Positions 11,523 to 37,752 of a stretch of 64,000 bases of DNA are shown piece after piece. The notes below the pieces were generated by a model that was not told the origin of the DNA, did not search any database, and saw nothing but the letters and a program-made list of their open reading frames with translations. Position 1 is the stretch's first letter. Each line of letters opens with the position of its first letter. Source of the DNA: an uncultured Actinomycetes bacterium (GTDB lineage: Bacteria; Actinomycetota; Geothermincolia; Fen-727; JACVIW01); assembly GCA_937127245.1 (NCBI GenBank), contig CAKZLU010000017.1, positions 3,452 through 67,451 on the forward strand, written 5' to 3'. Position numbers and translations under genes: made by a program.

Positions 11523-12730
11523 GTGAAGAAGAAAGGAGAAAAAATGGAAGGGATAAACACACCCGAAACATCCGCTGACCCTAAGGAGTTAGGGTTTGAC
11601 CCCGACCGGCTTAAGAGCATGAAGCGCTCTATCCAAGCCGATATCGAAAAGGGACTCTACGATGGAGCTGTCTTCATAGTGGCACGGCACGGACAGATTG
11701 CCCTGCATGAGGCGACAGGAAAGACCGACCTGGAGAAAACACGGAATCGAAAACCGATGACATCTTCTTCATCAAGTCCATAAGCAAGCAATTCACAGCC
11801 GTGCGGGTCATGATGGACATCGAGCGGGGCAAAAACGGCTTCAACACGCCCGTCAAAGACATAATCCCCGATTTCGGCAAGAAGGGGAAAGAGCGCGTCA
11901 CGATAGGGCAGATACTGACTCACACGAGCGGTCTGAACAGCGAAATACCCTACGAGCTCCCCGTTGACCAACTCGGCAACATCGAGGCTGTAACAGCCGC
12001 CTGCGCGAACGAGCGCCTCCTGTTCACCCCGGGAGCGATTCTCGCATACAACAGCATCGCGGCATTCTCCATCCTCGGCGTCATCGTGCAGCGCTCTGAT
12101 GAGAAAGGACGTCCTTACCGCCAGATGCTCCGCGAGGATTTGTTCGAGCCGCTCGGAATGGTTGACGCTTATCTGGGTCTGCCCGACACCTCTCGTGAGC
12201 GAATCGTTCCCGTGGCGGTAAGAGACCAAACTCCCGGTCTCTTCGAGCCGATCCTCCTGGATGCAATGAGCTTCAGCGCAAACGAGGAGACTGAACTTCC
12301 CGCCGGGAGCTGCACATCCACCGCAACAGACGTATTCCGCTTCATGGAGATGATGCGCCAGGGCGGTGAGCTGAACGGCGTGAGGATACTGTCGCCCGCG
12401 ATGGTCAAGACAGCCACAACCTGCCAGACAGGCGACATGCGAAACCATCTGCTCGACTACATGAACGAGATGTACGGCTGGAATGATAGCGAACTTTCGC
12501 TCGGCATGGCCTTCTTTGTCAAAAGCGGCAAAGCAAGGGTTACTCCGCCTGTCACCACAACCTCACCTGGCACCTTTGCGGCAATGGGCGCGGGCTCAAC
12601 AATAACCTGGGTTGACCCAGAGCTCGACCTCACTTTCGTGTTCCTGTCAGCGGGACTCCTCGAGGAGGGGGCGAGCATAACACGCCACCAGCGCCTTTCG
12701 GACATGGTGGTAGCGGCAGTGTCGGATTGA
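11523..12730 (+). pseudogene. beta-lactamase-fold serine hydrolase (class C / PBP-like), frameshifted
   Basis: The upstream ORF (11523-11783) is the N-terminus. The SxxK active-site motif (DDIFFIKSISKQFTAV) sits in a third frame that joins directly into the downstream ORF 11801-12730 (MRVMMDIERGK...HTSGL). One indel near 11750. Confidence 0.7.
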
Positions 12731-12752
12731 GTCTTTCAAGGGGGCGATAAGA

Positions 12753-13537
12753 TTGCCGGATTACAGAGACAAGTTCAAGGACAGGGTCGCGCTCGTGACG
12801 GGAGCAGCTTCCGGCATAGGGCTTGAAACCGCGCGGCTGTTCGTGGAAAACGGGGCGAATGTCATCGAGGCGGACCTCGACGAGGAGAGCCTGAGGAAAG
12901 CCGAGTCCGATCTTGGGAAGCGGTTTGCCGGCAAGGTGTGCGACGTCTCAAATGATGAGGACGTAAGGGCGCTCGCAGATTACATCGAGAACGAACGCGA
13001 CAGGCTTGATGTCATCGTGAACAACGCCGGGGTGGGGCGGCTGGCGACGGTCGATCAGATGACCGAGGAGGATTTTTGCTTCCATTACGACGTGAACGTG
13101 AAGGGTCCGATGCTAATGGTGTCCCGATGCCTGAATTGCTTGAGGAAATCGGACTACGCATCGATCGTGAACGTGTCATCGAGCGCGGCCCGGGCGGTCC
13201 TCGGAGGGCTTCACTACCTCTACTCCTCTTCAAAGTAGCGTTTCTTGCATACGCGGAGCACCTTGCGCGCAACCTCCCAGGGATCCGCGCGAATACCATC
13301 CTGCCCGGCTGGATCGACACACCCATATACGAGCGCGCAGGTGTCTCGCGCGAGTTCGTGGAAGAGGTTTACGGCAGGGTGATCCCTAAAATTCCCGCTG
13401 GGAGAATAGGGAATCCACGCGATGTGGCGGAATGCATCGTTTTTCTATGCTCGAAAGCCGCATCATACGTGAACGGGGCTGCTCTCGATGTCGGAGGGGG
13501 ATTGCTCACCGGCGTGGACTGGGCTTGGCCTTTCTGA
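12753..13537 (+). pseudogene. SDR family oxidoreductase, frameshifted at the catalytic YxxxK
   Basis: ORF1 ends ...NVSSSAARAVLGGLHYLYSSSK*. ORF2 (other frame) continues VAFLAYAEHLARNLPGIRANTILPGWIDTP. Rejoined, this gives a canonical SDR catalytic segment with a single-base indel near 13237. Confidence 0.7.
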
Positions 13538-13835
13538 GAAGATTTACGCGATACGGAGGCTTTGGAAATTTAACGCAGAAATTCAAGCGGTTTTGCTGTT
13601 TTCCGCTGGAATCACAAGGCCTTAGGAGAATTAGGGCGAGATGCGAGGGTTTTCAAGTATTCCAAGTAAAAACGGATAACCGGCGTCATCACACCATTGT
13701 TCATGCCAAAAGCGAAATCCTAAAAATACACTTTTGCCCATATGCGGTAGCCGAAGCAAACCCTTATCTCTTCCCTACTTCATCCCTCAATCCGCTCGTT
13801 ACCTTTTCAAAAGAGGGTTTTAAATGCGACCAAGA

Positions 13836-14600
13836 TCACTTCTTGCGCTTCTTGAGGGATTCGAGGAGGGACTCAATGCGGGCTTTGTTGTCATCAGAGC
13901 CGATGTAGGACCTGAACAGCCACTCTTGAGTCCTCATCGCTGTATCAAGGTCCATCCCGAGCACGCTAAAGCCGAGCCGCTTTATCTCCGCGAGGCACTC
14001 TCGGTCGCAGGAAGCCATCTGGCGTGCTATTTCATCAACGGACTCCACAACCTTCCCCTCGGGGAATACCTTGCTTACATAACCAATGCGATAAGCTTCC
14101 TGAGCGTCTATTATCCTGCCGGTGAGCGCAAGTTCTTTAGCCGGTCCCATTCCAACTATCCTCCAGAGCGGGTCGAGCAGGGGAGTAAGCGAGAGAATGA
14201 CTTCCCTCTGCCCGAATCTCGCCCTCTCGGATGCGTAGCGGATGTCGCACATCAAGGTGAGATCGAAACCTCCCGCGATGGCGGGTCCACCAACCGCCGC
14301 TATGACCGGTTGGCCGCAGAAGAGTATGGAACGGTATGCCCTGTGGAAAAGCGCCGTAAATTCCTCATTCGATTCCTTTTTTATGGTCTTGATGTAGTCG
14401 AGGTCAAAACCTGCGGAAAACATCTTCTCCCCGCCCGTGAGCACAATGACGTTAACATCCCTGTTCTGGTCGAGTTCGGTGAAGACATCCTCGATCTCTG
14501 AGAGCACCTCCGGGGACAGAGAATTGCCCTTCTCGGGTCTGTTTATTGTCACAGTCGCGAATTTGTAAGAAATCGAAACAAATAAGTATTTCTCGCCCAT
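13836..14600 (-). CDS. enoyl-CoA hydratase/isomerase (crotonase family)
   Basis: Crotonase-fold motifs (TINRPEKGNSLS, VIVLTGGEKMFSAGFDL, VIAAVGGPAIAGG). Confidence 0.85.
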   Translation of the reverse strand: MGEKYLFVSISYKFATVTINRPEKGNSLSPEVLSEIEDVFTELDQNRDVNVIVLTGGEKMFSAGFDLDYIKTIKKESNEEFTALFHRAYRSILFCGQPVIAAVGGPAIAGGFDLTLMCDIRYASERARFGQREVILSLTPLLDPLWRIVGMGPAKELALTGRIIDAQEAYRIGYVSKVFPEGKVVESVDEIARQMASCDRECLAEIKRLGFSVLGMDLDTAMRTQEWLFRSYIGSDDNKARIESLLESLKKRKK

Positions 14601-14755
14601 GATTAACCTCCTAATCTACACCAAAGTGCCCAATGGTTTGACTAAGCATCGCCATCACCCAGCATCAAGCCTTTTGGCACTGCTATCTTATCAAGAAGCA
14701 TCGCTTTTTAAGACCGCCCCGCCGTGCCGTATCCAAGCACTTTGAAACCACGCTC

Positions 14756-14905
14756 GCCGAGTATATGGCGCTCTTGTGTGTGGCGCACTTGTATATGACG
14801 CTCTTGTATGCGGTGCTCTTGTGCGCGGCGTTATTGTTTGCGGCGCCAATCATTACGCCCTTTATACCGTAATTGGTCAATTGCGCGGTACTCTCGTGTG
14901 CGGCG
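14756..14905. repeat. tandem array of ~10 degenerate 15-bp repeats (consensus GGCGCTCTTGTGTGC)
   Basis: Consecutive 15-mers ggcgctcttgtgtgt / ggcgcacttgtatat / gacgctcttgtatgc / ggtgctcttgtgcgc / ggcgttattgtttgc / ... The array lies 150-300 bp upstream of the crotonase start in a ~1 kb ORF-poor region. Confidence 0.6.
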
Positions 14906-15569
14906 CTCCTTATCTTGACCGCATCGTAAAAGCTGCGCTTGAGAGAACTGGCGAGATTTTTTGATAAAGGGGAGCTTCTGCGGTTTCACGTGTATTAAGG
15001 CAGTGGATGCGTGTTTATGCGCTTGAAAGGGCGTATTCGTGTTTATCCGTATCAAGAAATAAGCGCCGCATGGCGGTCCGATAACAGAGACCCGCCTTTC
15101 ACGCGACAGAATACGATGCGCAGGTAATGAGTGTCCTCCTGTTTGAAAAAAGATTCTCGTTCGGTGGTAATACCGTCATAAGCGTTCTTCCAGTCATTCC
15201 ATCCGATGTAGTGTGTTGGGAAACACAAACCGGTCCTGACAAAAGCCTGAAGCCGCGTATTCAAGGTGCTTACACTCCACTCAGACCATGATTTGTCCGC
15301 GCTTAACGCGCGCTGGACTTTTAAGACTTAATGCCGCCGACTATACCGTCTATACCTATACCCCGATCGCTTCCCTGTTTTCGCTTCCCGTCTTTTAGTA
15401 TCAATGGCTATCGGACTTAACCCAGACCCTAATCAGCGCGAAATAGCCTATCAAAACGCTAATTTTTAGAAAGCAGGCCAAAGGGCTTTGTTGAACGTGC
15501 CACAGCCGCAATTAAGGGTAATTTCCTCAATCTCCTTCCCTAAGGTTAATCTGATTATCTCCAATTGCA

Positions 15570-16139
15570 TTATTCTTGCCGCAATTTGCGTTTGCGCGCT
15601 TCGACCTCTTCGGCTATCACCTCGCGGGGGGAACCCAAATCGCAGAGCGCTTTGAAGTCCGAAATTAAGATGTATAATTCTCGGTCATTGCCTCTCTCGT
15701 CATTGTACTTTATGACAAGGTAGTGTGTTGTGGGGCTGTCCGGAGTATGTTCCTTGACGGTTGTCACATTGTTTATTTTTTCAAGCGGGATAACCGTGAG
15801 CTCATCTCCAAATCGGTATATGAACTCAGAGTCTTTGATCTCTAAATAACATTTATCCGGATGTCTTCTGTGCTCGAAAAATTTTTTGAAAAGACTGGCG
15901 AACACGGCTGCAAATCCTCCCGCGAAAATGCAACCAATGAGCAGGAAAAGAACCATCTTCATGTTCCTGTCGTAGAAATAGACGTTTGCCGCGCCTATAA
16001 GCAAAGCTATTGCGCACAGTGTGGCTGCCGATGTGGCAAAGCCCATGAAAACAACTGATATTATCCCAGGCTTACCTGCAACCACACGGAAAACCTCATC
16101 ATTTGTCTCACCAGATTTTTGCATCTTTTCCATTTCCAA
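15570..16139 (-). CDS. two-TM membrane protein with a C-terminal soluble (bacterial PH-like?) domain, paralog A
   Basis: 189 aa with two N-terminal hydrophobic helices. The C-terminal domain is paralogous to 16721-17278 (shared Y-x-I-x-S-x-F-x-YR ... IPLxKI..VTT ... LVIKY.DE ... S.FK.L...GSP.EVI). Confidence 0.6.
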   Translation of the reverse strand: MEMEKMQKSGETNDEVFRVVAGKPGIISVVFMGFATSAATLCAIALLIGAANVYFYDRNMKMVLFLLIGCIFAGGFAAVFASLFKKFFEHRRHPDKCYLEIKDSEFIYRFGDELTVIPLEKINNVTTVKEHTPDSPTTHYLVIKYNDERGNDRELYILISDFKALCDLGSPREVIAEEVEARKRKLRQE

Positions 16140-16265
16140 AAGGAAAAACGCATTAAGGGTTGCAGATTTTGTATAGATTCTAACACGCGCCAGATCGTCA
16201 ACAAACGCGCAAATGCTCCACGGGAAACTCCTCGAAAGACCGTTAGCATTTCCAGTTTCACCGCA

Positions 16266-16317
16266 GGATTTTTGGGTAACCCCATAGTTCCAAAAAGTGT
16301 TCCAACAATGGAGAGGG
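16266..16317 (-). promoter_or_regulatory. conserved upstream element of paralog A (GGATTTTTGGGTAACCCCATAGTTCCAAAAAGTGTTCCAA...)
   Basis: ~50-nt sequence 127-178 nt upstream of the paralog A start. About 75% identical to the element upstream of paralog B (17374-17425). Confidence 0.35.
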
Positions 16318-16720
16318 AAAAGAGGGAGGAGGTCTGTGGAGCAAAAAGAAGCAACGCATCAGCCCAAAGGAGATAAGCCCACCGCACGCGGCACGCGAGA
16401 TTTCCTTCCGCCCGAAGGGTATTTGAGCAGTCGCCGTAAAACAAAGTTGGTCTTTGTGATGGTAAGAAAACTGCTCATGTAGTTGCTATTAAAAAGATGG
16501 AATTGGGTGTCTTAAAGCCATCGCGCAGGAGGGACAAGGTAGTTTTCGGCATGGAGGGTGTGCCAAAGTAAAGGGATTGCGGCTATGTCTAACTTGCACC
16601 TACCTTTCCAACCCCTTGGTGAACCGCCGGAACTTGGTAATTCCTTTTCGCCCGCGGCTTCGCGGCATTCCCGTGTAACATGAGGCTTCCCTCACGGGGC
16701 TTCCAAAGCGTTCACAACCA

Positions 16721-17278
16721 TCAAGGACGGTGCTCAACTCTACGTTTCTTTATCTCCCGGGTGATCACTTCATCAGGCGAGCCGTACTCGGAAAGGGGTT
16801 TGAAAGACGATAAGGGTATTACAAGTTCTTTCTTTAAATCCTCTTCATCAAAGTACTTGATTACAAGGTCATATGATACCGGGTAGAGTAGATGCGCTCT
16901 TGTTTCTGTAGTAACCTCAGTGATTTTCGCAAGCGGGATAGATGTACAGTTTCTTCTATTTCTGTATGAGAATTTGGAACCGCTAATATCGATGTAATAA
17001 TTTTCCGGGTTTCTCCACTGGTCGAATAAGCTTACGAACACACGAGTGAAACGGTATGCAAGCCCAGAGGCGATGAGGAAAAAGGGAAAGAGCATACCGG
17101 TAATCATAAAGTCCTTCTCGTATATTAAGAGATCCAGAGTGCCGACAAACAAAGCAATCGCACAGATTAAAGGCGTGACCGCCGCGATTGCCCAAGAGGC
17201 AAGTGTTATTGCAACCGCTTTATCGGCAAGCATGTGAAAGGATTCAAGTTCAGGCGAACTTTGATCAGGCATCCGCAT
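16721..17278 (-). CDS. two-TM membrane protein with a C-terminal soluble (bacterial PH-like?) domain, paralog B
   Basis: 185 aa with the same architecture and conserved C-terminal motifs as 15570-16139. Confidence 0.6.
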   Translation of the reverse strand: MRMPDQSSPELESFHMLADKAVAITLASWAIAAVTPLICAIALFVGTLDLLIYEKDFMITGMLFPFFLIASGLAYRFTRVFVSLFDQWRNPENYYIDISGSKFSYRNRRNCTSIPLAKITEVTTETRAHLLYPVSYDLVIKYFDEEDLKKELVIPLSSFKPLSEYGSPDEVITREIKKRRVEHRP

Positions 17279-17373
17279 CCAATCAGATTGCGGTGCCGAT
17301 AGCGCGACAAGGAAACAAGAAGGATTGTATCAAATGAGGAAAATGATTTAGCACCCCAACTTTTTTCAAACAT

Positions 17374-17425
17374 GGATTTGGTCTAAACCCCATAGGACCA
17401 AAAAGTCTTCCAATTGCAGAGAGAC
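17374..17425 (-). promoter_or_regulatory. conserved upstream element of paralog B (GGATTTGGTCTAAACCCCATAGGACCAAAAAGTCTTCCAA...)
   Basis: Matches the element at 16266-16317 and sits 96-147 nt upstream of the paralog B start. Confidence 0.35.
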
Positions 17426-17446
17426 AAGCGGAAAGTGTTCCGCTTC

Positions 17447-17501
17447 ATAAAAAATGAGACACCTCCAAGTTGGATGATATCATCCATAACACTGGGAGGT
17501 G
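17447..17501 (-). terminator. intrinsic terminator candidate downstream of the EVE-fusion gene
   Basis: Stem CACCTCC/GGAGGTG enclosing the perfect palindrome TGGATGATATCATCCA. On the minus strand it is followed by TCTCATTTTTTAT. Confidence 0.4.
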
Positions 17502-17554
17502 GAACACGGAAAAGAAGAGGAAGCGGAACAGTTTAACAGCAGCCAACGAATTCT

Positions 17555-18649
17555 TTACTCCACTTCGAAACAAGGCTCGGCTATTTCATCAATGAACTCG
17601 GGTTTCAAAACATGGAGTAAATCTTTCGCCTGTTCAATTTTTTCTTTCAGTGCCGAGTACGAAATGTATTGACAGCATTCCGACAGCGGCGGTTTTAATC
17701 TCGCAAACGTTGGCCTCATTATTTCTTTAATAACCTTTTCACGCCTCTCCTCTGGCGCAACTATGTACAGTTTTATCTTTATATTCGGTTGCATTGAGAT
17801 AAGATCTGACATTCTAAGAATTCCGCTGTATACCGAACTCGTGTGTTCCACTTCAAACGCCGCAAAGATTGATTTACCATCAAGCCAAACAACATCTATA
17901 TTCTTAATCGTACTATTTGTTGCCTCGTCAAAGTGGAGGGGGATTTCGTCCACGCAGTAATCAGCAAATTTCATTCCTTTGTACTCTTTGTTTTTATCAT
18001 TCCGAGCAACACTTACGTCAAAGCTAAGATTTCTGCCAAGATCAATCAGCAACCACTGGATTTCTTCATGGCTAACTTTAGTCGGCAAACTTTCGATTTC
18101 TGATTCATCCTCCTCGGGAACAGTAACAATGCCCCCTTCGGTTGGATAAGTCGGAAATACTTTGGGAACCCTCCTGTATTTTTTCTCATCATAAGGAAAG
18201 GGCCTTGGATTCTTCTGTGCATTTTCCATCGCTTCTATAACCACACGTGCGTCTTCGGGTTTCATCTTCGCCGGCGATCCCCGAAAATATCCGGTCCATG
18301 CATGGGGGCTTTTCATATCTTGAAAGTACGAAAGCTTATCTTTGAGGTTAAGTATAGGGACTGCATTTTCCGGCTTGAGAAGAATCAATGGCTTGACAGG
18401 GAATCTACACGGAAAAATCTCCTGAGACCATATTGTTTTCTCAGTGTCGTAATAGGTAGGACCAGTCACCTCCAGCAAGCCGATCCACCGTGAAATGCCA
18501 GTACAGTAGCAAAGTAGGTAATCACCGGGCTTTACCTGCTTACAGACCTTTTCTCTTGTTTCCCTGAACCCTGATACGTTGGCCCCTGCCCCGAGAAACT
18601 CATCCCATGTTGTCCCAGTGAACAAGTCAAGCCAGTAACTTCGACCCAT
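17555..18649 (-). CDS. EVE (PUA-like) domain fusion protein; candidate modification-dependent restriction endonuclease
   Basis: The N-terminus (YWLDLFTGTTWDEF...VKPGDYLLCYCTGISRWIGLLEVTG) fits the EVE/PUA-like fold. The C-terminal ~150 aa carry a conserved acidic block (DVVWLDGKSIFAAFEVEHTSSVYSGILRMSDL ... LYIVAPEERREKV) compatible with a nuclease-type domain. The gene is visibly lower in GC than its flanks and has its own terminator. Confidence 0.65.
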   Translation of the reverse strand: MGRSYWLDLFTGTTWDEFLGAGANVSGFRETREKVCKQVKPGDYLLCYCTGISRWIGLLEVTGPTYYDTEKTIWSQEIFPCRFPVKPLILLKPENAVPILNLKDKLSYFQDMKSPHAWTGYFRGSPAKMKPEDARVVIEAMENAQKNPRPFPYDEKKYRRVPKVFPTYPTEGGIVTVPEEDESEIESLPTKVSHEEIQWLLIDLGRNLSFDVSVARNDKNKEYKGMKFADYCVDEIPLHFDEATNSTIKNIDVVWLDGKSIFAAFEVEHTSSVYSGILRMSDLISMQPNIKIKLYIVAPEERREKVIKEIMRPTFARLKPPLSECCQYISYSALKEKIEQAKDLLHVLKPEFIDEIAEPCFEVE

Positions 18650-18937
18650 CCTTAACCCCCATTTCAGCGCGTCTTATTGGGATAATTTAGATATCCCTGG
18701 TGAATTTTACCACATAAGAGGGTTTGGTTTGCTTGGAATAGTCTTCGACTTAGAGCGCTCGGGGGTGGAATTGTTTCGCCCCTTTTATGCGTCTCTCTCC
18801 AAAAAATTATGTGTGTTTAGAGTTTTTAGGCCACCCTGGTCAATTCATTCTCTACTCACAGACGGATACTACCTCTTGTAGTTAAACACACAAAAGCGCC
18901 AACTGCACAACATGGTTAATCCCTGTGCAGGGGAACC

Positions 18938-21610
18938 TCATAACCCGTATCCAAACGAGATGTGCCCCCCTGTGATTCCCTTGTTGTAATTGAAATACAT
19001 CGGCCTTTCGACCACGATGGGCAGATCGGAGTTTACGACCACTCCGGCGTCCATGTTCTCCCCCAGAATGCGGTTGACCGAGAAAGTGCCGCGGGAGAAA
19101 GCCTCAACGCTGGCACTGGCGATTGTCCTGACACCATCGCTTCTTATGAAAGTTATCTCCAACCTCACCCTTTTGCCATTCGGGTTGAACACGCTTAGCC
19201 ACTCCTCGAAACCACCCTTACCCCAGCTCCTTGTTGAGCCTTCAGCGAAGTACGTCCTGCATCCGGCGCAAGGCAAGCCGAGGACCGCGTGACCTCCTGT
19301 CAATCCGTTGCGGTAATTGAAATATACGACCCGCTCCCCGACTATTGGTTCGCCGCTTGAAACCTTGATGGAAACATCGCGGTCGAATCCGATTTCTGCT
19401 GGAACGTGCACTGTCACGCGCCTCATCATGGGCACTATCACGTTTTTCCGAACAAGCTGACCTCCCTGAGAGTAGAAGGAGACGGTCGCGTGGGCATCCC
19501 TTTCGCCGGGATTCTGCAGGCACAGCCACTCATCAGCCCACCTGTAAGTGCATCCCTCCGCGAAGTAGAGTTCGTTTGAAGGATTCCTCGCCCCGAGCGC
19601 GCAACTTCCCCCATCCCAGTCCCTACCGTATTTGAAATAGACGGAGCGTTCGGCGACAACAGGAACGGTGCTTGCAATGCGTATACCGAAATCCTTCTGT
19701 GCCCCGAGAACCTGGTTCAAGTTCATCGTATTCCTCGAGAGCGGGGGTACGGTCAGCCTCTTTCCAACCGGGGCTCCGCTCGCCATCAATAACTCCACTT
19801 TCACTTGAGCGCTTTTCTCGGTGGGGTTCAGAACGCAAAGCCTGGTCTCGAAAGCGGTTCCGTCTCCTGTATGCCTGGTCGTCCCTTCAGCGAAATACCA
19901 CTTGGAGGAAGGTTCAGGCGCGCCAACAACAGCGTGTCCTCCGGTCCATTTGTTGCGATAGTTGAAGTACATGACCCTTTCTGCAACCACGGGCTTGTTA
20001 GCTTCAACAATCGCGGATACATCTTTCTGAAGACCTATGTCGCTTGCCACATCTATCGTGAGCCTCGTGTTTCCCCACATCCTGTACAACTTGCGCATCG
20101 GACTCGAACCCCCGGACACAAGGTAGGTCACTGATAGACTCACGTTCTCCTTGTTCGGATTCAATACTGAAATCCACTCGTAGAATTTCCCGTCGGTTTT
20201 ATTCCTCCGGGTGGTCCCTTCAGCGAAATAGTAAGTTCGGGAAAGACCCGGCATGAAATGGACTTTGTTTGAGCTCCCATAAGAAGTGACAACATACACC
20301 TCTCCCTTGCGGGCGCCTTCCGGGACGCTCAAGACAATCTCTGAAGATGACCAGGTAATAGTATCACCACGCCTTACTCTTATTCCGCAGAACGAGACGT
20401 ACGATTCCGCGCCAGAACCCGCAAGCGCGCTCTCCGTCGGGAAGGAGCCGAGGATTCTTACCCTCGCGCCGATATGGGCGCTTGCAGGCTCTATCCCGTC
20501 GATCCAGGGACCAACCGGGTGTTTCCAAACTTGAAACCCGTAAGGGTTGCCCGTCCCAACAATGTAGTTATTTTTGAAAAGATAGGGTATGAGTATTATG
20601 TTGTTCGGATCGCCAAGACCAGCCTTGCCCCACTGCACGAAACCACCCTGAGCAGATGGTTTGTATAGGACGCCCGTCCCAGATGGACCATTTTTACCAA
20701 AGCCCAGCACTGAAAAGTAAGGCTTATTATTCATAACCACAGGAAGAATAACTGAACTCTCCTTAATGTTAACCCCCGTTTTCACCTTGACCCATGTCCT
20801 TCCGTCATACCTCCACAGCTGAGCACCTGCTGGATTGGCGGTCCCCGCGTATAGGAAATCCTTTGAAGCAGACATGAGAAAACAATCCACGTTTTGTTGC
20901 TCACCGAAGCCAGGCTGAGCGGTCTGTTTCCAAACTCCACTCCCCTCATAGCACAGTGGGATCATCATGCCCGCACCCTCTAATCTTGCGACGAGATGTA
21001 TTTTCCCCTTGTACATAGCGGGGATACAAATCCCGGTGGCGCCCACGCCAAATCCGTCTTCGTTAACTCTCGCAAACTTACTGCCATCGAACGACCACAC
21101 CTTCGCACCGTATTCCCAGTCGCCAACACCGATCAGGAGCCTGTCATTCTGAACCCCGAGCGGATAACATTCACCCCTTGCCGTATCGATTATTCCCTTG
21201 CCTATGTTTTCCCAATTCTTCCCATCCTTTGTGCGCCACAATTGAGCTCCACTGTACCTCGTGGTCGTTCCGCAGTAGAAGTAGCCCTTGTAAACAGGTC
21301 CGGGGAAAAACGCGATGTTGTTCTTGTCCCCGAAGCCATCGGTCGCCGCTTTTTTGAAGCTTATCCCATCGTATTTCCAGATAGGCACCGTTTTGGCGCT
21401 TTCGTCTTCTGAGCCGGGCACCATAAAATAAAGACCGCCATTGAACTCGGTAATCGGGAACATCATGGGGATTTCAGGGTTATCTATACCCTTATCCGCG
21501 ATCTTCTTCCACGGCTCGCTCGCTGGTGCTTCAGCCAGGAATACGCAAGAAAAAGACAGGCTTGAAGCGAGAAAGATAGCATAGAAAATCCAGAAATTTG
21601 ACCGCTTCAT
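18938..21610 (-). CDS. large secreted protein: signal peptide, beta-propeller-like repeats, IPT/TIG domain and 4 C-terminal YFAEGTT...NPN repeats
   Basis: Likely start MKRSNFWIFYAIFLASSLSFS (signal peptide) at 21610. Repeated W..DG.....GFG blocks are followed by a TIG-like segment (VRILGSFPT...VSFCGIRV), then four ~110-aa repeats each beginning (Y/W)YFAEG(T/S)T and containing L.VLNPN. Confidence 0.7.
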   Translation of the reverse strand: MKRSNFWIFYAIFLASSLSFSCVFLAEAPASEPWKKIADKGIDNPEIPMMFPITEFNGGLYFMVPGSEDESAKTVPIWKYDGISFKKAATDGFGDKNNIAFFPGPVYKGYFYCGTTTRYSGAQLWRTKDGKNWENIGKGIIDTARGECYPLGVQNDRLLIGVGDWEYGAKVWSFDGSKFARVNEDGFGVGATGICIPAMYKGKIHLVARLEGAGMMIPLCYEGSGVWKQTAQPGFGEQQNVDCFLMSASKDFLYAGTANPAGAQLWRYDGRTWVKVKTGVNIKESSVILPVVMNNKPYFSVLGFGKNGPSGTGVLYKPSAQGGFVQWGKAGLGDPNNIILIPYLFKNNYIVGTGNPYGFQVWKHPVGPWIDGIEPASAHIGARVRILGSFPTESALAGSGAESYVSFCGIRVRRGDTITWSSSEIVLSVPEGARKGEVYVVTSYGSSNKVHFMPGLSRTYYFAEGTTRRNKTDGKFYEWISVLNPNKENVSLSVTYLVSGGSSPMRKLYRMWGNTRLTIDVASDIGLQKDVSAIVEANKPVVAERVMYFNYRNKWTGGHAVVGAPEPSSKWYFAEGTTRHTGDGTAFETRLCVLNPTEKSAQVKVELLMASGAPVGKRLTVPPLSRNTMNLNQVLGAQKDFGIRIASTVPVVAERSVYFKYGRDWDGGSCALGARNPSNELYFAEGCTYRWADEWLCLQNPGERDAHATVSFYSQGGQLVRKNVIVPMMRRVTVHVPAEIGFDRDVSIKVSSGEPIVGERVVYFNYRNGLTGGHAVLGLPCAGCRTYFAEGSTRSWGKGGFEEWLSVFNPNGKRVRLEITFIRSDGVRTIASASVEAFSRGTFSVNRILGENMDAGVVVNSDLPIVVERPMYFNYNKGITGGHISFGYGL

Positions 21611-22190
21611 ATGACCACTCCGATCTCGCCTCTGAACTTCTGTCTTGCGGCGACACACCTCTGCTTCAAAGCATTTTTGCTCACATAAGATAATTCGGCA
21701 TTTAGACTTCATTTCTTTTCCCGTTAGCGCTATTTACCGATAATCACTTTAAGGCTCCCCTACACGTCTTCCCGTAAGAGAGGTATTCGCGCGTGGAGGT
21801 GAAAACGAATCAGCGGGTGATAATAGGAATCATCCTTTTTCCTTCAAAAGACGAAGACATTTCCCCAATTCTGCCTGTTAATTCATCTATTGGAAATAGT
21901 AAACATTCTTCTTCCTTAAAAAGACGGGGCTCAAAGCATGTGAAGGTGAAGAGATATATCCACCACGCTCACGACGGTCTGGTACGAGGCACTAGGCATG
22001 TTAGGGTGAATATGAATGGGTTCACGGTTATGCCCGTTTTGGACACAAGAAACCGAGTAGGACCTCACAAAACCGCATCAACCTGTTAAATATAAATACT
22101 TACCTTAGTTTCCCCGCCAAAAGAGCGAGTATGACGAAGAAAATCCGCGCCCTGAGCTTCGCGTCATTCCCTAAGCGAAAAACTTCTTAC

Positions 22191-33981: not shown

Positions 33982-36900
33982 TCAGTCGCTGTAACCGCCA
34001 ATCGTCGCCGTGCCCATGAACATCCCGTACCCCTGAATGAGCGCGTACATCGCGCGTTCAACCATTATCTTCTTCCCCGCTGTCTTCGAACTCACCATCA
34101 CGGAGGCGCGACCGTCCTGTATGACGTCCGCCATAAAATAGGTTTTTCTCGAGTTCGCCGGCACCGTGTCGGTTATCGATTTTTCCCCGGAACCGTCCTC
34201 GGGTAGATACGTTACCTCGACCGCAACCTCTTGATCATTCGGGTTCTGAACGAGAGTCCAGGTTTGAACCTCGCCCATCAGACCAGCCTCGGGATGCATG
34301 CCCGCTTCTCCATCGGGAAGATAGAAAGTCTTATGCGCGGCAGAAAGACCGATAGAATCGTGGCACTTCTCCCCGAAAATAGTCCCCTCCCCCCAGTACA
34401 TGGCGCGTTCGGCTATTATCGGTCGGTCGCCCGTCACTTTCGTTGAGAAGTCCCTTGGTGGAAGATAGTCATTGACCCTGATTGTTTTTCTCGAGTTGGG
34501 CGGCATGAGAATGGGGCTTTCAGGGTGAGTTATCGGACCCTCGTTCGTCATGTAGGTGAGGACCACGCTCGTAGGCTCGCTGTTTGGGTTTTGTACCAGA
34601 ACATACGTTGTGAAACCCCAGGCGGTCGTCCCCTCAGCAAGGTAATAGTTCAAGGAGGGAGAGGTTGTGCCCACCGAGTCATGTCCGCTTTTTCGATTGT
34701 TTCTATACATTGCCCTCTCGGGGATAACGGGTAAATTCGAGCTAACTTTTATTGAGGCGTCTTTTGCACCTATGTGCTCGGCCATGTTGAAAGTTGCGCG
34801 AGAGTTTGCCGGCACAGAAACCTTCACGCTTGAGGGACCTTCGTTCTCAATCATGTAGGTTATATCGCAGCTTGCCGTACTGCTGTTCGGATTCTGGATA
34901 AGAAGCCAGCACTCGAAGCCCCAGGCTGTGGAGCCCTCCGGCAGATACCAGGTTTTAGCCGGAGAGGTCACGCCTATTGAGGAGTGAGCGTCCCCTATGT
35001 CCTCCTCCAAACCCCAGAACATCGTCCTGTCAACCGCGATTGTTTTCCCCTCAAGGCACTCGACCTTTGTGGAGAAATCTTCCTCTCCCAGATCCTCCCA
35101 TGGGAAGATTGTGGCTTGGCTCATCGGAGCCATCCTGAAATCGGGCTTAACAACCGGACCGCTTTTCGTCTGATATGTCATGCGAATCGTAACTTCCGTG
35201 GAGTTCGGGTTCGCGATAGATATATAAGTCTCGAAGCCCCAGTCGGTGGAACCCTCCGCCAGATACCATGTGGATAGCGGATTCTTTTGAACGACCGTAA
35301 AGCTCTTTGAATTTGATTTTCCACCCGCGGTAGTGACCGTCACAGCAACTTTTCCAGAAACGCCGGTCGGAACTTTCACCTTCAAGCGGTTGTTCGCCCA
35401 TGAGAGATAACTTGACACCCTCTTTGTGCCGAAGCTCACATATGAGGAGCCCCTCGTAGAACCAAATCCGGACCCGTATATGGTGACATTGGCACCCGCG
35501 CTTCCGCTACTTGGCGACAAAGATGAAATGACCGGTTTTGGCAGAGCGGTAATTTTTTTAAGGGCAGCATATGCATTTATCCGCCCGTAACCGAAATAAT
35601 CATCCCGACCGGACGCCCCTAAATCTTTCGCTGTGCTTTCAAGCGTTTGCTGAACTTTCAAGGGCGTAAGGGAGGGTTTTTCAGATAAAAGCAGGGCTGC
35701 GCTGCCCGCCGCCATGGGAGAAGCCATGGATGTGCCATCCATAAAAGAGTAATTCTGAGTATATCCGAGAGCATTCAGGCTCGCGCTGTAGGTGGGCATC
35801 GCGGAATAGATGTCCTTGCCGGGCGCCGAGATGTCCACGCTCGAGTTGTATGTCGAGAAGACAGCCCTCTCGTCCCTGTTCGTGGTAGCGCCAACCCCAA
35901 TCACATTCGAATAGCCCGCCGGATACATGAGCGTGGAGTCCGAGGTGTTGCCCGCCGAAGCGAATATCGCAGCACCTTTGCCGTAAGCATAAGTGATTGC
36001 GTTCTGGACAAGCGAAGAGTGGGATTCGCTCTGCAAACTCATGTTTATGACGTCAGCACCGTTATCCGCGGCATAGTAAATGGCATCAATTATGTGGGAC
36101 GCATAAGCTCCGCCGCTTGAGTCAGTGACTTTCAGGGGCATAACCCTGACTTTCAAACCAGGCGCAACGCCCACAACCCCCTGGGCGTTCTCAGAGGCAG
36201 CCACTATTCCAGCGCAGTGCGTTCCGTGCGCGTTATTGTCATGGGGATAGAAGTAAGGGTTTGTCCTGAAGTAAAAGTCTTTAGCGTAGAGGGAGGTCCA
36301 TCCAGACCCCGTCCACTGCCACGCCTCTCCCTCGTGATAAGTATGCCACGTACCTTCTTCCGTTCCCCAGTTGTCGTAGATACGGTAGTAATCTGAGGCG
36401 CTCGCCTGACTTGTCCAGAAGATAAGGTAGTAAGGAAGTCCCGCGTCAAGGTTAAGTGGTGTCGATAGTGCTTTGTAGATTTCGGTGATCCCTGTTGAGG
36501 AAATCTCTGAATAATCTATCACGTACGATGAAAGGTCCGATCCGGTAAGTGAGGTGCGGACGACAACATTTATCGGTAAAGTGGGGTTTCCTATCTTCCT
36601 CAAGGCTATTCCAACGTGGGTAAGCCTCTGTTTATGTCCCGGGGTAGCCCGAGCCGTAAACGATTGGGCAAACATCTGCTGAGTAATACTGGTGCCGAAA
36701 TTTTCATACGAGTTCACCCATGCGCTTCCGTTCCAGTACGTGCAGTTGTACTGGGAGATACCCGCCCAGTTATACCCGTTCCTATCGTCAACAAAACCGT
36801 TCCCATCATCATCCAACCCATTCCCCGCAGTTTCGTCTGAGTTCACCCAGATTCTCGAGGAAAGATCGGGATGGGAAAAATCAATGCCGGAATCGATGAC

Positions 36901-37425
36901 GGCGACCGTGACATCGTTGGAGGTTCCTTTTTCGATATCCCAGGCATCAGGCGCATCAATGTCGGCATCCGCAACCCCAACAGACCCCCCTATTACTTGA
37001 CCGGTGTTATGCAACCCCCACTGCTTTGGAAAATCAGGGTCAGTCGGAGTGTGAGCAATCTTGTATATGAAGTTGGGCTCGGCATACTCGATCATGTGGC
37101 TGGAGGAAAGTTCTTGAACCGCTTTTTCAACACTCACGCCGGGTTTAAGTTTCAAAACCTCAATATCCTTTTTGTCGCGTGGACCTATCTTTCCTAAAAC
37201 GGATGCGCCAGCCTCTGATTTAATCTCGTCGGCTGAGGATTTCCTTATACCTTCTTTAAACTTCACAAGTACCTCGCCAGGCTTATAGACGCATAAAGGC
37301 GTGCCGGGCATCAGACCGCTGGCCTTAGCCAAAAGTTTGCCCGGTGAGGAAGTGGCATGAGAAGTTAACGGAAAACCAAGTGTAATTAGATGAAGCAAAA
37401 TAAGAATGCATAATAAACGTTTCAT
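33982..37425 (-). CDS. secreted S8 family subtilisin-like serine protease with PA-like insert, TIG domain and 4 C-terminal YLAEGST...NPN repeats
   Basis: ATG at 37425 with a GGAGG RBS and signal peptide MKRLLCILILLHLITLG. Propeptide, catalytic triad segments VAVIDSGID / HGTHCAGIVAA / GTSMASPMAAG, an IPT/TIG-like segment (VISSLSPSSGSAGANVTIYGSGFG), then four ~110-aa repeats beginning (W/Y)YL(A/P)EG. Confidence 0.9.
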   Translation of the reverse strand: MKRLLCILILLHLITLGFPLTSHATSSPGKLLAKASGLMPGTPLCVYKPGEVLVKFKEGIRKSSADEIKSEAGASVLGKIGPRDKKDIEVLKLKPGVSVEKAVQELSSSHMIEYAEPNFIYKIAHTPTDPDFPKQWGLHNTGQVIGGSVGVADADIDAPDAWDIEKGTSNDVTVAVIDSGIDFSHPDLSSRIWVNSDETAGNGLDDDGNGFVDDRNGYNWAGISQYNCTYWNGSAWVNSYENFGTSITQQMFAQSFTARATPGHKQRLTHVGIALRKIGNPTLPINVVVRTSLTGSDLSSYVIDYSEISSTGITEIYKALSTPLNLDAGLPYYLIFWTSQASASDYYRIYDNWGTEEGTWHTYHEGEAWQWTGSGWTSLYAKDFYFRTNPYFYPHDNNAHGTHCAGIVAASENAQGVVGVAPGLKVRVMPLKVTDSSGGAYASHIIDAIYYAADNGADVINMSLQSESHSSLVQNAITYAYGKGAAIFASAGNTSDSTLMYPAGYSNVIGVGATTNRDERAVFSTYNSSVDISAPGKDIYSAMPTYSASLNALGYTQNYSFMDGTSMASPMAAGSAALLLSEKPSLTPLKVQQTLESTAKDLGASGRDDYFGYGRINAYAALKKITALPKPVISSLSPSSGSAGANVTIYGSGFGSTRGSSYVSFGTKRVSSYLSWANNRLKVKVPTGVSGKVAVTVTTAGGKSNSKSFTVVQKNPLSTWYLAEGSTDWGFETYISIANPNSTEVTIRMTYQTKSGPVVKPDFRMAPMSQATIFPWEDLGEEDFSTKVECLEGKTIAVDRTMFWGLEEDIGDAHSSIGVTSPAKTWYLPEGSTAWGFECWLLIQNPNSSTASCDITYMIENEGPSSVKVSVPANSRATFNMAEHIGAKDASIKVSSNLPVIPERAMYRNNRKSGHDSVGTTSPSLNYYLAEGTTAWGFTTYVLVQNPNSEPTSVVLTYMTNEGPITHPESPILMPPNSRKTIRVNDYLPPRDFSTKVTGDRPIIAERAMYWGEGTIFGEKCHDSIGLSAAHKTFYLPDGEAGMHPEAGLMGEVQTWTLVQNPNDQEVAVEVTYLPEDGSGEKSITDTVPANSRKTYFMADVIQDGRASVMVSSKTAGKKIMVERAMYALIQGYGMFMGTATIGGYSD

Positions 37426-37752
37426 TTTTCCTCCGTAAAAATTAGCTAGCTCGATAAACTTTCCCACAAAATCTAGATTCTGTCATTTTTAAAACATTTG
37501 TGTCGAACATCGACAGACCTGTTTTCGAGCTTGACCATGATCCAAGAGTCATTCGAGGGTTTGAGAGATTCCCGTGTCGAGAATTCTCGCATCACCCGAA
37601 AGAGTGATTTTGTTAATCCAAAATCTCCGTGTTAGAATAAAAAGGTTGCAAAAGAAAGATGCGACAACGAAGAAAGTCTTTAAGAAATATTTTCTAAAAC
37701 TCCTCTTCGTTTCCCTATCTTTTACGCGTCAGACCTCATTTGACGACAACTT

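Follow-up and report, generated by a model that had tools for sequence, protein, structure and literature searches.

What keeps a short piece of DNA nearly unchanged upstream of two genes that have otherwise drifted far apart? The question arises at a locus on contig CAKZLU010000017.1 of an uncultured Actinomycetes bacterium, from which we analyzed a stretch of 64,000 nucleotides (nt), here called the window. Two paralogous genes for small membrane proteins, termed A and B, lie there in tandem, and a 28-nt element stands before each of them. We found that selection acts on the element as DNA rather than as coding sequence. As its function we tentatively favor a promoter read by an alternative sigma factor of the extracytoplasmic function (ECF) type, possibly with an overlapping operator. 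The features on which the argument is built are as follows.

15570 to 16139, minus strand: paralog A, 189 amino acids (aa) from a TTG start at 16139, with alternative in-frame ATG starts at 16133 and 16124.
16278 to 16305, minus strand: element copy A, TTGGAACACTTTTTGGAACTATGGGGTT, 139 to 145 nt upstream of the start of A, depending on the start codon.
16262 to 16320, minus strand: extended conserved block around element A with a CTCTC 5' flank and an AAATCC 3' flank, conserved as non-coding DNA (MAFFT, nhmmer, six-frame count of synonymous and nonsynonymous changes).
16721 to 17278, minus strand: paralog B, 185 aa from an ATG start, with the same architecture as paralog A.
17386 to 17413, minus strand: element copy B, TTGGAAGACTTTTTGGTCCTATGGGGTT, ~108 nt before the start of B and ~142 nt past the stop codon of a gene for an EVE-domain protein.
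17368 to 17428, minus strand: extended conserved block around element B (MAFFT, nhmmer, six-frame count).

The initial annotation, made from the letters of the sequence, had taken A and B for clear paralogs, and alignment bears this out. The two proteins align end to end without a gap, with 62 of 183 residues identical (34%; BLASTP E value, 9e-34), and tblastn found no third copy of the gene in the window. At the DNA level, the coding sequences are 51% identical overall and 37% identical at third positions in a codon alignment. Even in codons that specify the same amino acid in A and B, the third position agrees in only 44%; synonymous sites are saturated. The best 28-nt window of the aligned coding DNA reaches 21/28, versus 25/28 for the upstream element. 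Since the coding DNA has diverged this far while the element has held at 25/28, the duplication, which has a period of ~1.1 kb, must be old, and no other piece of the repeated unit is as strongly conserved as the element. The proposal that gene and upstream element were duplicated as a unit and then diverged therefore stands: an old tandem duplication copied a one-gene unit made up of a short cis-acting DNA element and a small membrane-protein gene.

The two copies of the element share 25 of 28 bases (89% in a repeat search) and follow the consensus TTGGAAsACTTTTTGGnnCTATGGGGTT, which can also be written TTGGAA(C/G)ACTTTTTGG(AA/TC)CTATGGGGTT. With up to three mismatches allowed, the pattern TTGGAASACTTTTTGGNNCTATGGGGTT matched the window only at 16278-16305 and 17386-17413, both on the minus strand, and none of 100 shuffled sequences gave a match. 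Once the CTCTC and AAATCC flanks on the 5' and 3' sides are included, the conserved region extends to ~50 nt (MAFFT). A conserved element before each gene had been reported in the initial annotation and is thus real; the similar distance to the ORF (open reading frame) start that was claimed with it holds only roughly, at ~108 nt in B versus 139 to 145 nt in A. Because the element has stayed at 25/28 despite 34% protein identity and saturated synonymous sites, we conclude that selection acts on the DNA itself.

Both copies have exactly the layout of an ECF promoter of the sigmaE/H/R type, in which a -35 GGAAN and a -10 GTT lie 18 to 19 nt apart: element A reads GGAAC-N18-GTT, and element B reads GGAAG-N18-GTT. 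The -35 motif forms the 5' end of the conserved block and the -10 GTT its 3' end, and a T-tract directly follows the -35 motif. Such a T-tract after the -35 is common in ECF promoters. Both downstream genes are for membrane proteins, a typical kind of ECF target. When the conserved block was shuffled with its composition kept, only 0.2 to 0.7% of the shuffles gave an ECF match. The published consensus is GGAAC/T-N18-19-GTT, from which copy B differs in having G rather than C or T at -31; sigmaH, however, accepts GGAAN, with any base at -31 (PMC10012870), and the rshA promoter of C. glutamicum sigmaH is GGAAGA-N17-GTT, that is, it carries a GGAAG -35 element (PMC10012870). The single variable base near the 5' end of our element falls at this tolerated position. 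The initial annotation had offered a sigma-54 promoter "or another specialised promoter," and the second half of that guess has proved the better one. Taken together, we believe that an alternative-sigma (ECF-type) promoter, possibly with an overlapping operator, is the best explanation of the element, and we put its probability slightly below an even chance.

If so, the element would serve as the promoter of each gene and would be read by a sigmaE/H/R-like ECF sigma factor whose gene lies outside the window. The transcripts would begin a few bases past the GTT and carry 5' leaders of ~100 to 135 nt, and the two paralogs, each with its own promoter, would be turned on jointly. That the spacer is unusually well conserved suggests a regulator binding site that overlaps the promoter. 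Were this correct, the locus would be a natural example of promoter selection, in which a 28-nt element is kept nearly unchanged before genes that have fallen to 34% identity, and the element would be a candidate ECF regulon marker for an uncultured lineage.

Several points weigh against this assignment. GGAAN-N17-19-GTT carries little information, with 39 matches on both strands of the window, and the fit was reached after several promoter classes had been tried. The published consensus comes from Actinobacteria and may not be that of the host. ECF promoters do not require a conserved spacer, and a promoter alone does not explain the 18 nt conserved here, which makes an overlapping operator likely. 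No sigma or anti-sigma gene was present among the ~50 window ORFs scanned. The element is known in just two copies; L005 and L006, the other assemblies of the locus, are 99.9% identical to the window over 3.9 kb, carry no comparative information, and so provide no independent comparative test. The proteins have seven distant relatives, described below, and the element is absent upstream of all seven. At least two of these have ordinary sigma-70-type promoters instead, TTGACA-N17-TAAAAT in L010 and an extended -10 in L007. The element is thus not a family trait.

The next reading to consider is that the element is an operator, a transcription factor binding site separate from the true promoter or overlapping it. 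All 28 nt are conserved, including the spacer, as is seen more often at protein-binding sites than at bare promoters. Two candidate half-site arrangements can be drawn. One is a direct repeat, TTGGAA-N6-TTGG(A/T)(A/C), whose TTGG units lie 12 nt apart, start to start, in both copies. The other is an imperfect dyad, TTTTTGG-N12-14-CCAAA, a 7-bp inverted repeat that both copies keep through different base pairs; its arms, however, differ between the copies in position and spacing. No regulator gene adjoins the module, the nearest being TetR and PAS genes 5 to 8 kb off in other operons. We consider the operator reading rather unlikely; nothing separates it from the promoter reading, and both may be true.

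It is also conceivable that the element acts as RNA. The element, as a hairpin or a motif bound by a protein, would then be part of a 5' leader whose transcription begins further upstream, and it would control the translation of the two mRNAs or their stability. In both copies a 7-bp stem can close the conserved loop CUAUGGGGUU, with partly different pairs, and RNAalifold found a common 5-bp hairpin, GGGUU/AAUCC. However, the folding energies are no better than those of shuffled sequences (z scores of -1.5 and +0.3), the minimum-energy structures differ between the copies, and the consensus fold, with its one compensatory pair, has an energy of only -5 kcal/mol. Conservation is highest in linear, unpaired bases. 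Rfam 15 gave no relevant match at an E value of ≤10 in 14500-19000 and none at the gathering score anywhere in the window. An RNA function is therefore improbable.

The first half of the guess in the initial annotation was a sigma-54 promoter of the -24/-12 type. With TGGAAC as the -24 and TTGG as the -12 element, a distant enhancer-binding protein would be the activator. The likeness to TGGCAC-N5-TTGC promoters consists of TGG at -24 and TTG at -14: both copies have T-GG at -26 to -24 and TTG at -15 to -13 with the correct GG-to-G spacing, and ~140 to 400 nt of non-coding DNA upstream leaves room for an activator site. The published consensus, tGGcacg/tTGCt, has a near-invariant GC at -12 (PMC4641369). 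In both of our copies the C at -12 is a G, so that positions -13/-12 read GG and the doublet that defines the class is missing (GG-N10-GG; TGGAA(C/G)A-CTTT-TTGG). Positions -23 and -20 are also off consensus. There are no canonical sigma-54 promoters in the window, and neither Sigma54_activat nor any other enhancer-binding-protein domain occurs among the ORFs scanned. Even a full match would have been weak evidence, since a bare GG-N10-GC arises in 4 to 9% of block shuffles, and the reading leaves the conserved CTATGGGGTT unexplained. We consider it quite improbable and do not retain the sigma-54 assignment. Other classes fared no better. For sigma-70, there is no acceptable -10 hexamer 16 to 18 nt from TTGGAA, and a promoter scan of the minus strand came back empty; the Bacteroidetes -33/-7 and sigma-28 consensus sequences did not fit by eye.

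The weakest reading, that the block codes for a short peptide (for example, from the shared ATG inside the element, MG(L/F)..NP..K) or is a coding relic kept by gene conversion without a regulatory role, is highly unlikely. One frame does give 11 of 21 identical residues (E value, 8e-6 for a single comparison), and the frame of ORF A runs open through the element. Yet the peptide similarity ends exactly where the DNA similarity ends, the candidate ORFs differ in length (36 aa versus 74 aa), and in the copy B frame no canonical start codon precedes the conserved block. Synonymous changes are not in excess: they account for 3 or fewer of the 9 differing codons in every frame, and the best frame has a conserved stop. 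Third positions within the block are conserved to the same degree as the other two codon positions. The element lies in frame with ORF A and out of frame with ORF B, and three minus-strand frames and one plus-strand frame give similarly weak tblastx matches (E values of 0.013 to 0.42). Gene conversion would be expected to leave a longer tract nearer to 100% identity. No reading frame, then, explains the conservation of the element.

Known classes of repeat and signal were also considered and set aside. A dispersed repeat is ruled out, since there is no other full or partial copy of the element in the window. An integron attC-like or REP-like sequence does not fit: RYYYAAC/GTTRRRY cores are missing, the copy number is just two, and the ORFs scanned include no integrase. 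A terminator was rejected because the hairpin lacks a following T-run on both strands. As for the intergenic DNA between B and A, it is no remnant of the EVE gene or of any other part of the window. The stretch from the stop codon of the EVE gene to element B has three occurrences of the 8-mer AAGCGGAA and its complement (17426-17445 and 17520-17534). A perfect 8-bp hairpin at 17426-17445 ends ~12 nt upstream of element B in the direction of transcription, and its segment 17438-17445 can pair instead with 17521-17528. Without a T-run after it, this hairpin is no classical terminator; copy A has no equivalent.

Outside the window, the exact core ACTTTTTGGNNCTATGGGGTT had four matches in 596 Gb of genome contigs, which is about the chance expectation. 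Of these, three fall within long open reading frames (LFGSMGF in one case), and one is intergenic. The core had no matches in metagenome contigs or viral contigs, and blastn found no copy of the element in plasmids. An nhmmer profile of the element, run over all fetched loci, returned the known copies only. In a protein-based search for further loci, alignment A3 was too divergent for patterns, and A2 gave 417 pattern matches, none of which was confirmed. The only external look-alike is the intergenic TTGAAATACTTTTTGGGACTATGGGGTT in the metagenome-assembled genome of an uncultured Bacteroidales bacterium (L002, CAZOHR010000092.1, 2772-2799, plus strand), which agrees at 24 of 25 fixed positions and precedes a lipoprotein gene by ~150 nt. 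It was found through the 19-base core, for which ~4 chance matches are expected, and its additional flank match of 5/6 has a P value of ~0.02. The resemblance is probably due to chance.

We now turn to the proteins that the element precedes. Neither A nor B has a match in Pfam, NCBIfam, or PADLOC, and a profile search of PDB sequences with the family gave nothing below an E value of 0.3. Among 5.8 billion clustered proteins, each paralog matches only its own near-identical cluster, and these clusters trace back to three or four assemblies of one organism. When 1.84 billion representatives were searched exhaustively with a profile, only seven distant relatives of the same size came up, with E values of 8e-9 to 6e-4, along with a few repeat-protein false positives. 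The family is thus uncatalogued and very rare, with ~9 clusters among the 1.84 billion representatives.

An AlphaFold2 model built with family alignment A3 reached a pLDDT (predicted local distance difference test) of 89 and a predicted template modeling (pTM) score of 0.73. The model has an N-terminal strand (residues 16 to 20), helices at 26 to 57 and 60 to 92, six strands, a short helix, and a C-terminal helix at 171 to 188. The predicted architecture is therefore an N-terminal strand, a hairpin of two transmembrane (TM) helices, and a PH-like beta-sandwich capped by the C-terminal helix. The family alignment places the N-terminal strand inside the conserved domain, which implies that the shorter gene calls of A are too short. 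The same alignment speaks against a longer N-terminus, although the frame of A remains open for ~72 codons upstream of the TTG start (16140-16355, minus strand), through the element, without an ATG, GTG, or TTG; the probability of this by chance is ~3%. A basic stretch follows the second helix (KKFFEHRRHPDK in A, with RRN conserved family-wide), and by the positive-inside rule we infer that the PH-like domain lies in the cytoplasm. In such an arrangement, the TM hairpin would anchor a cytoplasmic PH-like domain, one strand of which is supplied by the N-terminus before the hairpin.

In Foldseek searches with two models, the top PDB match was the NOX2 chaperone EROS (8kei_D; E values of 3e-4 and 1.4e-4), aligned over the full length in ~180 columns with a probability of 1.0. 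The next matches were PH and PTB domains, namely, those of Rtt106, FACT Spt16/SSRP1, EPS8, ICAP1, and the bacterial PH protein 3dcx. These matches and the pLDDT of 89 support the initial annotation of two TM helices and a PH-like C-terminal domain. EROS itself has antiparallel helices H1 and H2, six strands, and a C-terminal helix that make up a PH domain, and its relationship to Ycf4 has been noted (bioRxiv 10.1101/2023.09.11.557130). The predicted layout of A and B resembles EROS (CYBC1) and Ycf4 in the N-terminal strand, the two long antiparallel TM helices, the six strands, the C-terminal helix, and the cytoplasmic placement of the PH-like domain. It differs in that nine family members had no match to the Ycf4 (PF02392) or EROS Pfam model at an E value of ≤10, and in that the host here is apparently a non-photosynthetic, fatty-acid-degrading bacterium.

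Membership in the bPH_2/YdbS group, which the initial annotation had raised, was not borne out. When the nine members were scanned against Pfam-A with hmmscan, no bPH model appeared at the same threshold, and the only matches were weak ones driven by the TM helices. The likeness to bPH_2 (PF03703), to B. subtilis YdbS and YdbT, and to the PH proteins of leaderless bacteriocin loci (PMC8657885) lies in small size, bacterial origin, an N-terminal TM hairpin, and a PH-like domain in the cytoplasm. In A and B, by contrast, one strand of the domain precedes the hairpin, and no bacteriocin or transporter genes lie near them. Genes of the bPH_2/YdbS-YdbT type often occur as adjacent paralogous pairs.

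By analogy with EROS, A and B are probably membrane-anchored adaptors or chaperones, which would hold a partner membrane protein, possibly as a pair. Against this stand the low TM-scores of the EROS match (0.36 to 0.41), its 15% identity in the structural alignment, the lack of a sequence-level link, and the fact that the chaperone role comes by analogy only. At its fullest, the proposal would make A and B founding members of a very rare bacterial family of EROS/Ycf4 architecture, in which a TM hairpin interrupts the PH domain. They would act as chaperones for membrane proteins in a setting that is neither photosynthetic nor eukaryotic, with a dedicated alternative-sigma promoter and an overlapping operator of a new type. 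We regard this whole combination as unlikely. What is new here is the very rare, uncatalogued protein family; the kind of architecture, a membrane hairpin with a PH-like domain nearest in shape to EROS, was already known. The layout match to a eukaryotic protein could bear on the origin of that architecture. The practical value is modest and lies, apart from the possible regulon marker, in a Pfam-type family definition.

The gene directly upstream of B raises a further possibility.

17555 to 18649, minus strand: EVE-nuclease gene, 364 aa.

Its product has an EVE domain at residues 4 to 140 (NF002008; E value, 6.7e-10) and a C-terminal restriction-nuclease domain (PF27126 NmeDI_C; PADLOC REase_II, 3e-18), and from these domain matches the fusion is a plausible candidate for a modification-dependent (type IV-like) restriction enzyme. 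A and B could then be its partners, as effectors or immunity proteins in a phage defence module. Besides the nuclease domain, the shared strand of all three genes and a local dip in G+C content are in keeping with this: G+C is 0.45 in 16001-18000, 0.49 and 0.51 in the adjacent 2-kb windows, and 0.56 in 12001-14000. However, an EVE or nuclease neighbor is missing in all seven distant relatives, PADLOC has no match for A or B, and no phage or plasmid relative turned up. Each paralog also has its own upstream element, and gaps of 275 to 580 nt separate A, B, and the EVE gene. We consider a role in defence very unlikely. The initial annotation had placed both copies immediately beside the EVE gene; the adjacency is real here, directly upstream of B, but it is conserved in no relative and so probably reflects incidental cohabitation of an island.

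The relatives have other neighbors. In L009 (782-2882), the gene lies beside Caroten_synth and a lycopene cyclase gene, and in L015 (2630-6826) beside two CrtI-like amine oxidases, again carotenoid genes. In L012 (5196-7352), it lies beside an Rce1-like protease gene, with an 8-nt overlap, which is followed by TauE in an operon. The L010 gene lies beside a DsbH-type thioredoxin gene, and that of L007 is isolated. These neighbors hint at a role with membrane enzymes, with no single conserved partner. That membrane-protein genes adjoin several of the relatives is in line with the adaptor or chaperone reading. In the window, the wider surroundings are genes of fatty-acid and coenzyme A (CoA) metabolism.

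Some further features of the surrounding DNA were observed. A ~970-nt gene-poor gap between paralog A and an enoyl-CoA hydratase gene contains, at 14761-14846, about five tandem copies of a 15-nt unit, GGCGCTCTTGTATGC, with 73% matches; one gene caller placed a 62-aa ORF across this array (14776-14964, plus strand). At 12753-13537 on the plus strand, a short-chain dehydrogenase gene appears to be split by a frameshift into overlapping ORFs of 161 aa and 153 aa. The Joint Genome Institute (JGI) assembly L005 has the same split (161 aa and 59 aa), and the gene is probably a real pseudogene rather than a sequencing error. Finally, a 924-aa protein encoded upstream of the EVE gene (18938-21712, minus strand) and a 1161-aa S8 subtilase 13 kb away (33982-37467, minus strand) have repeated DUF5719/ASRT-like domains in common.

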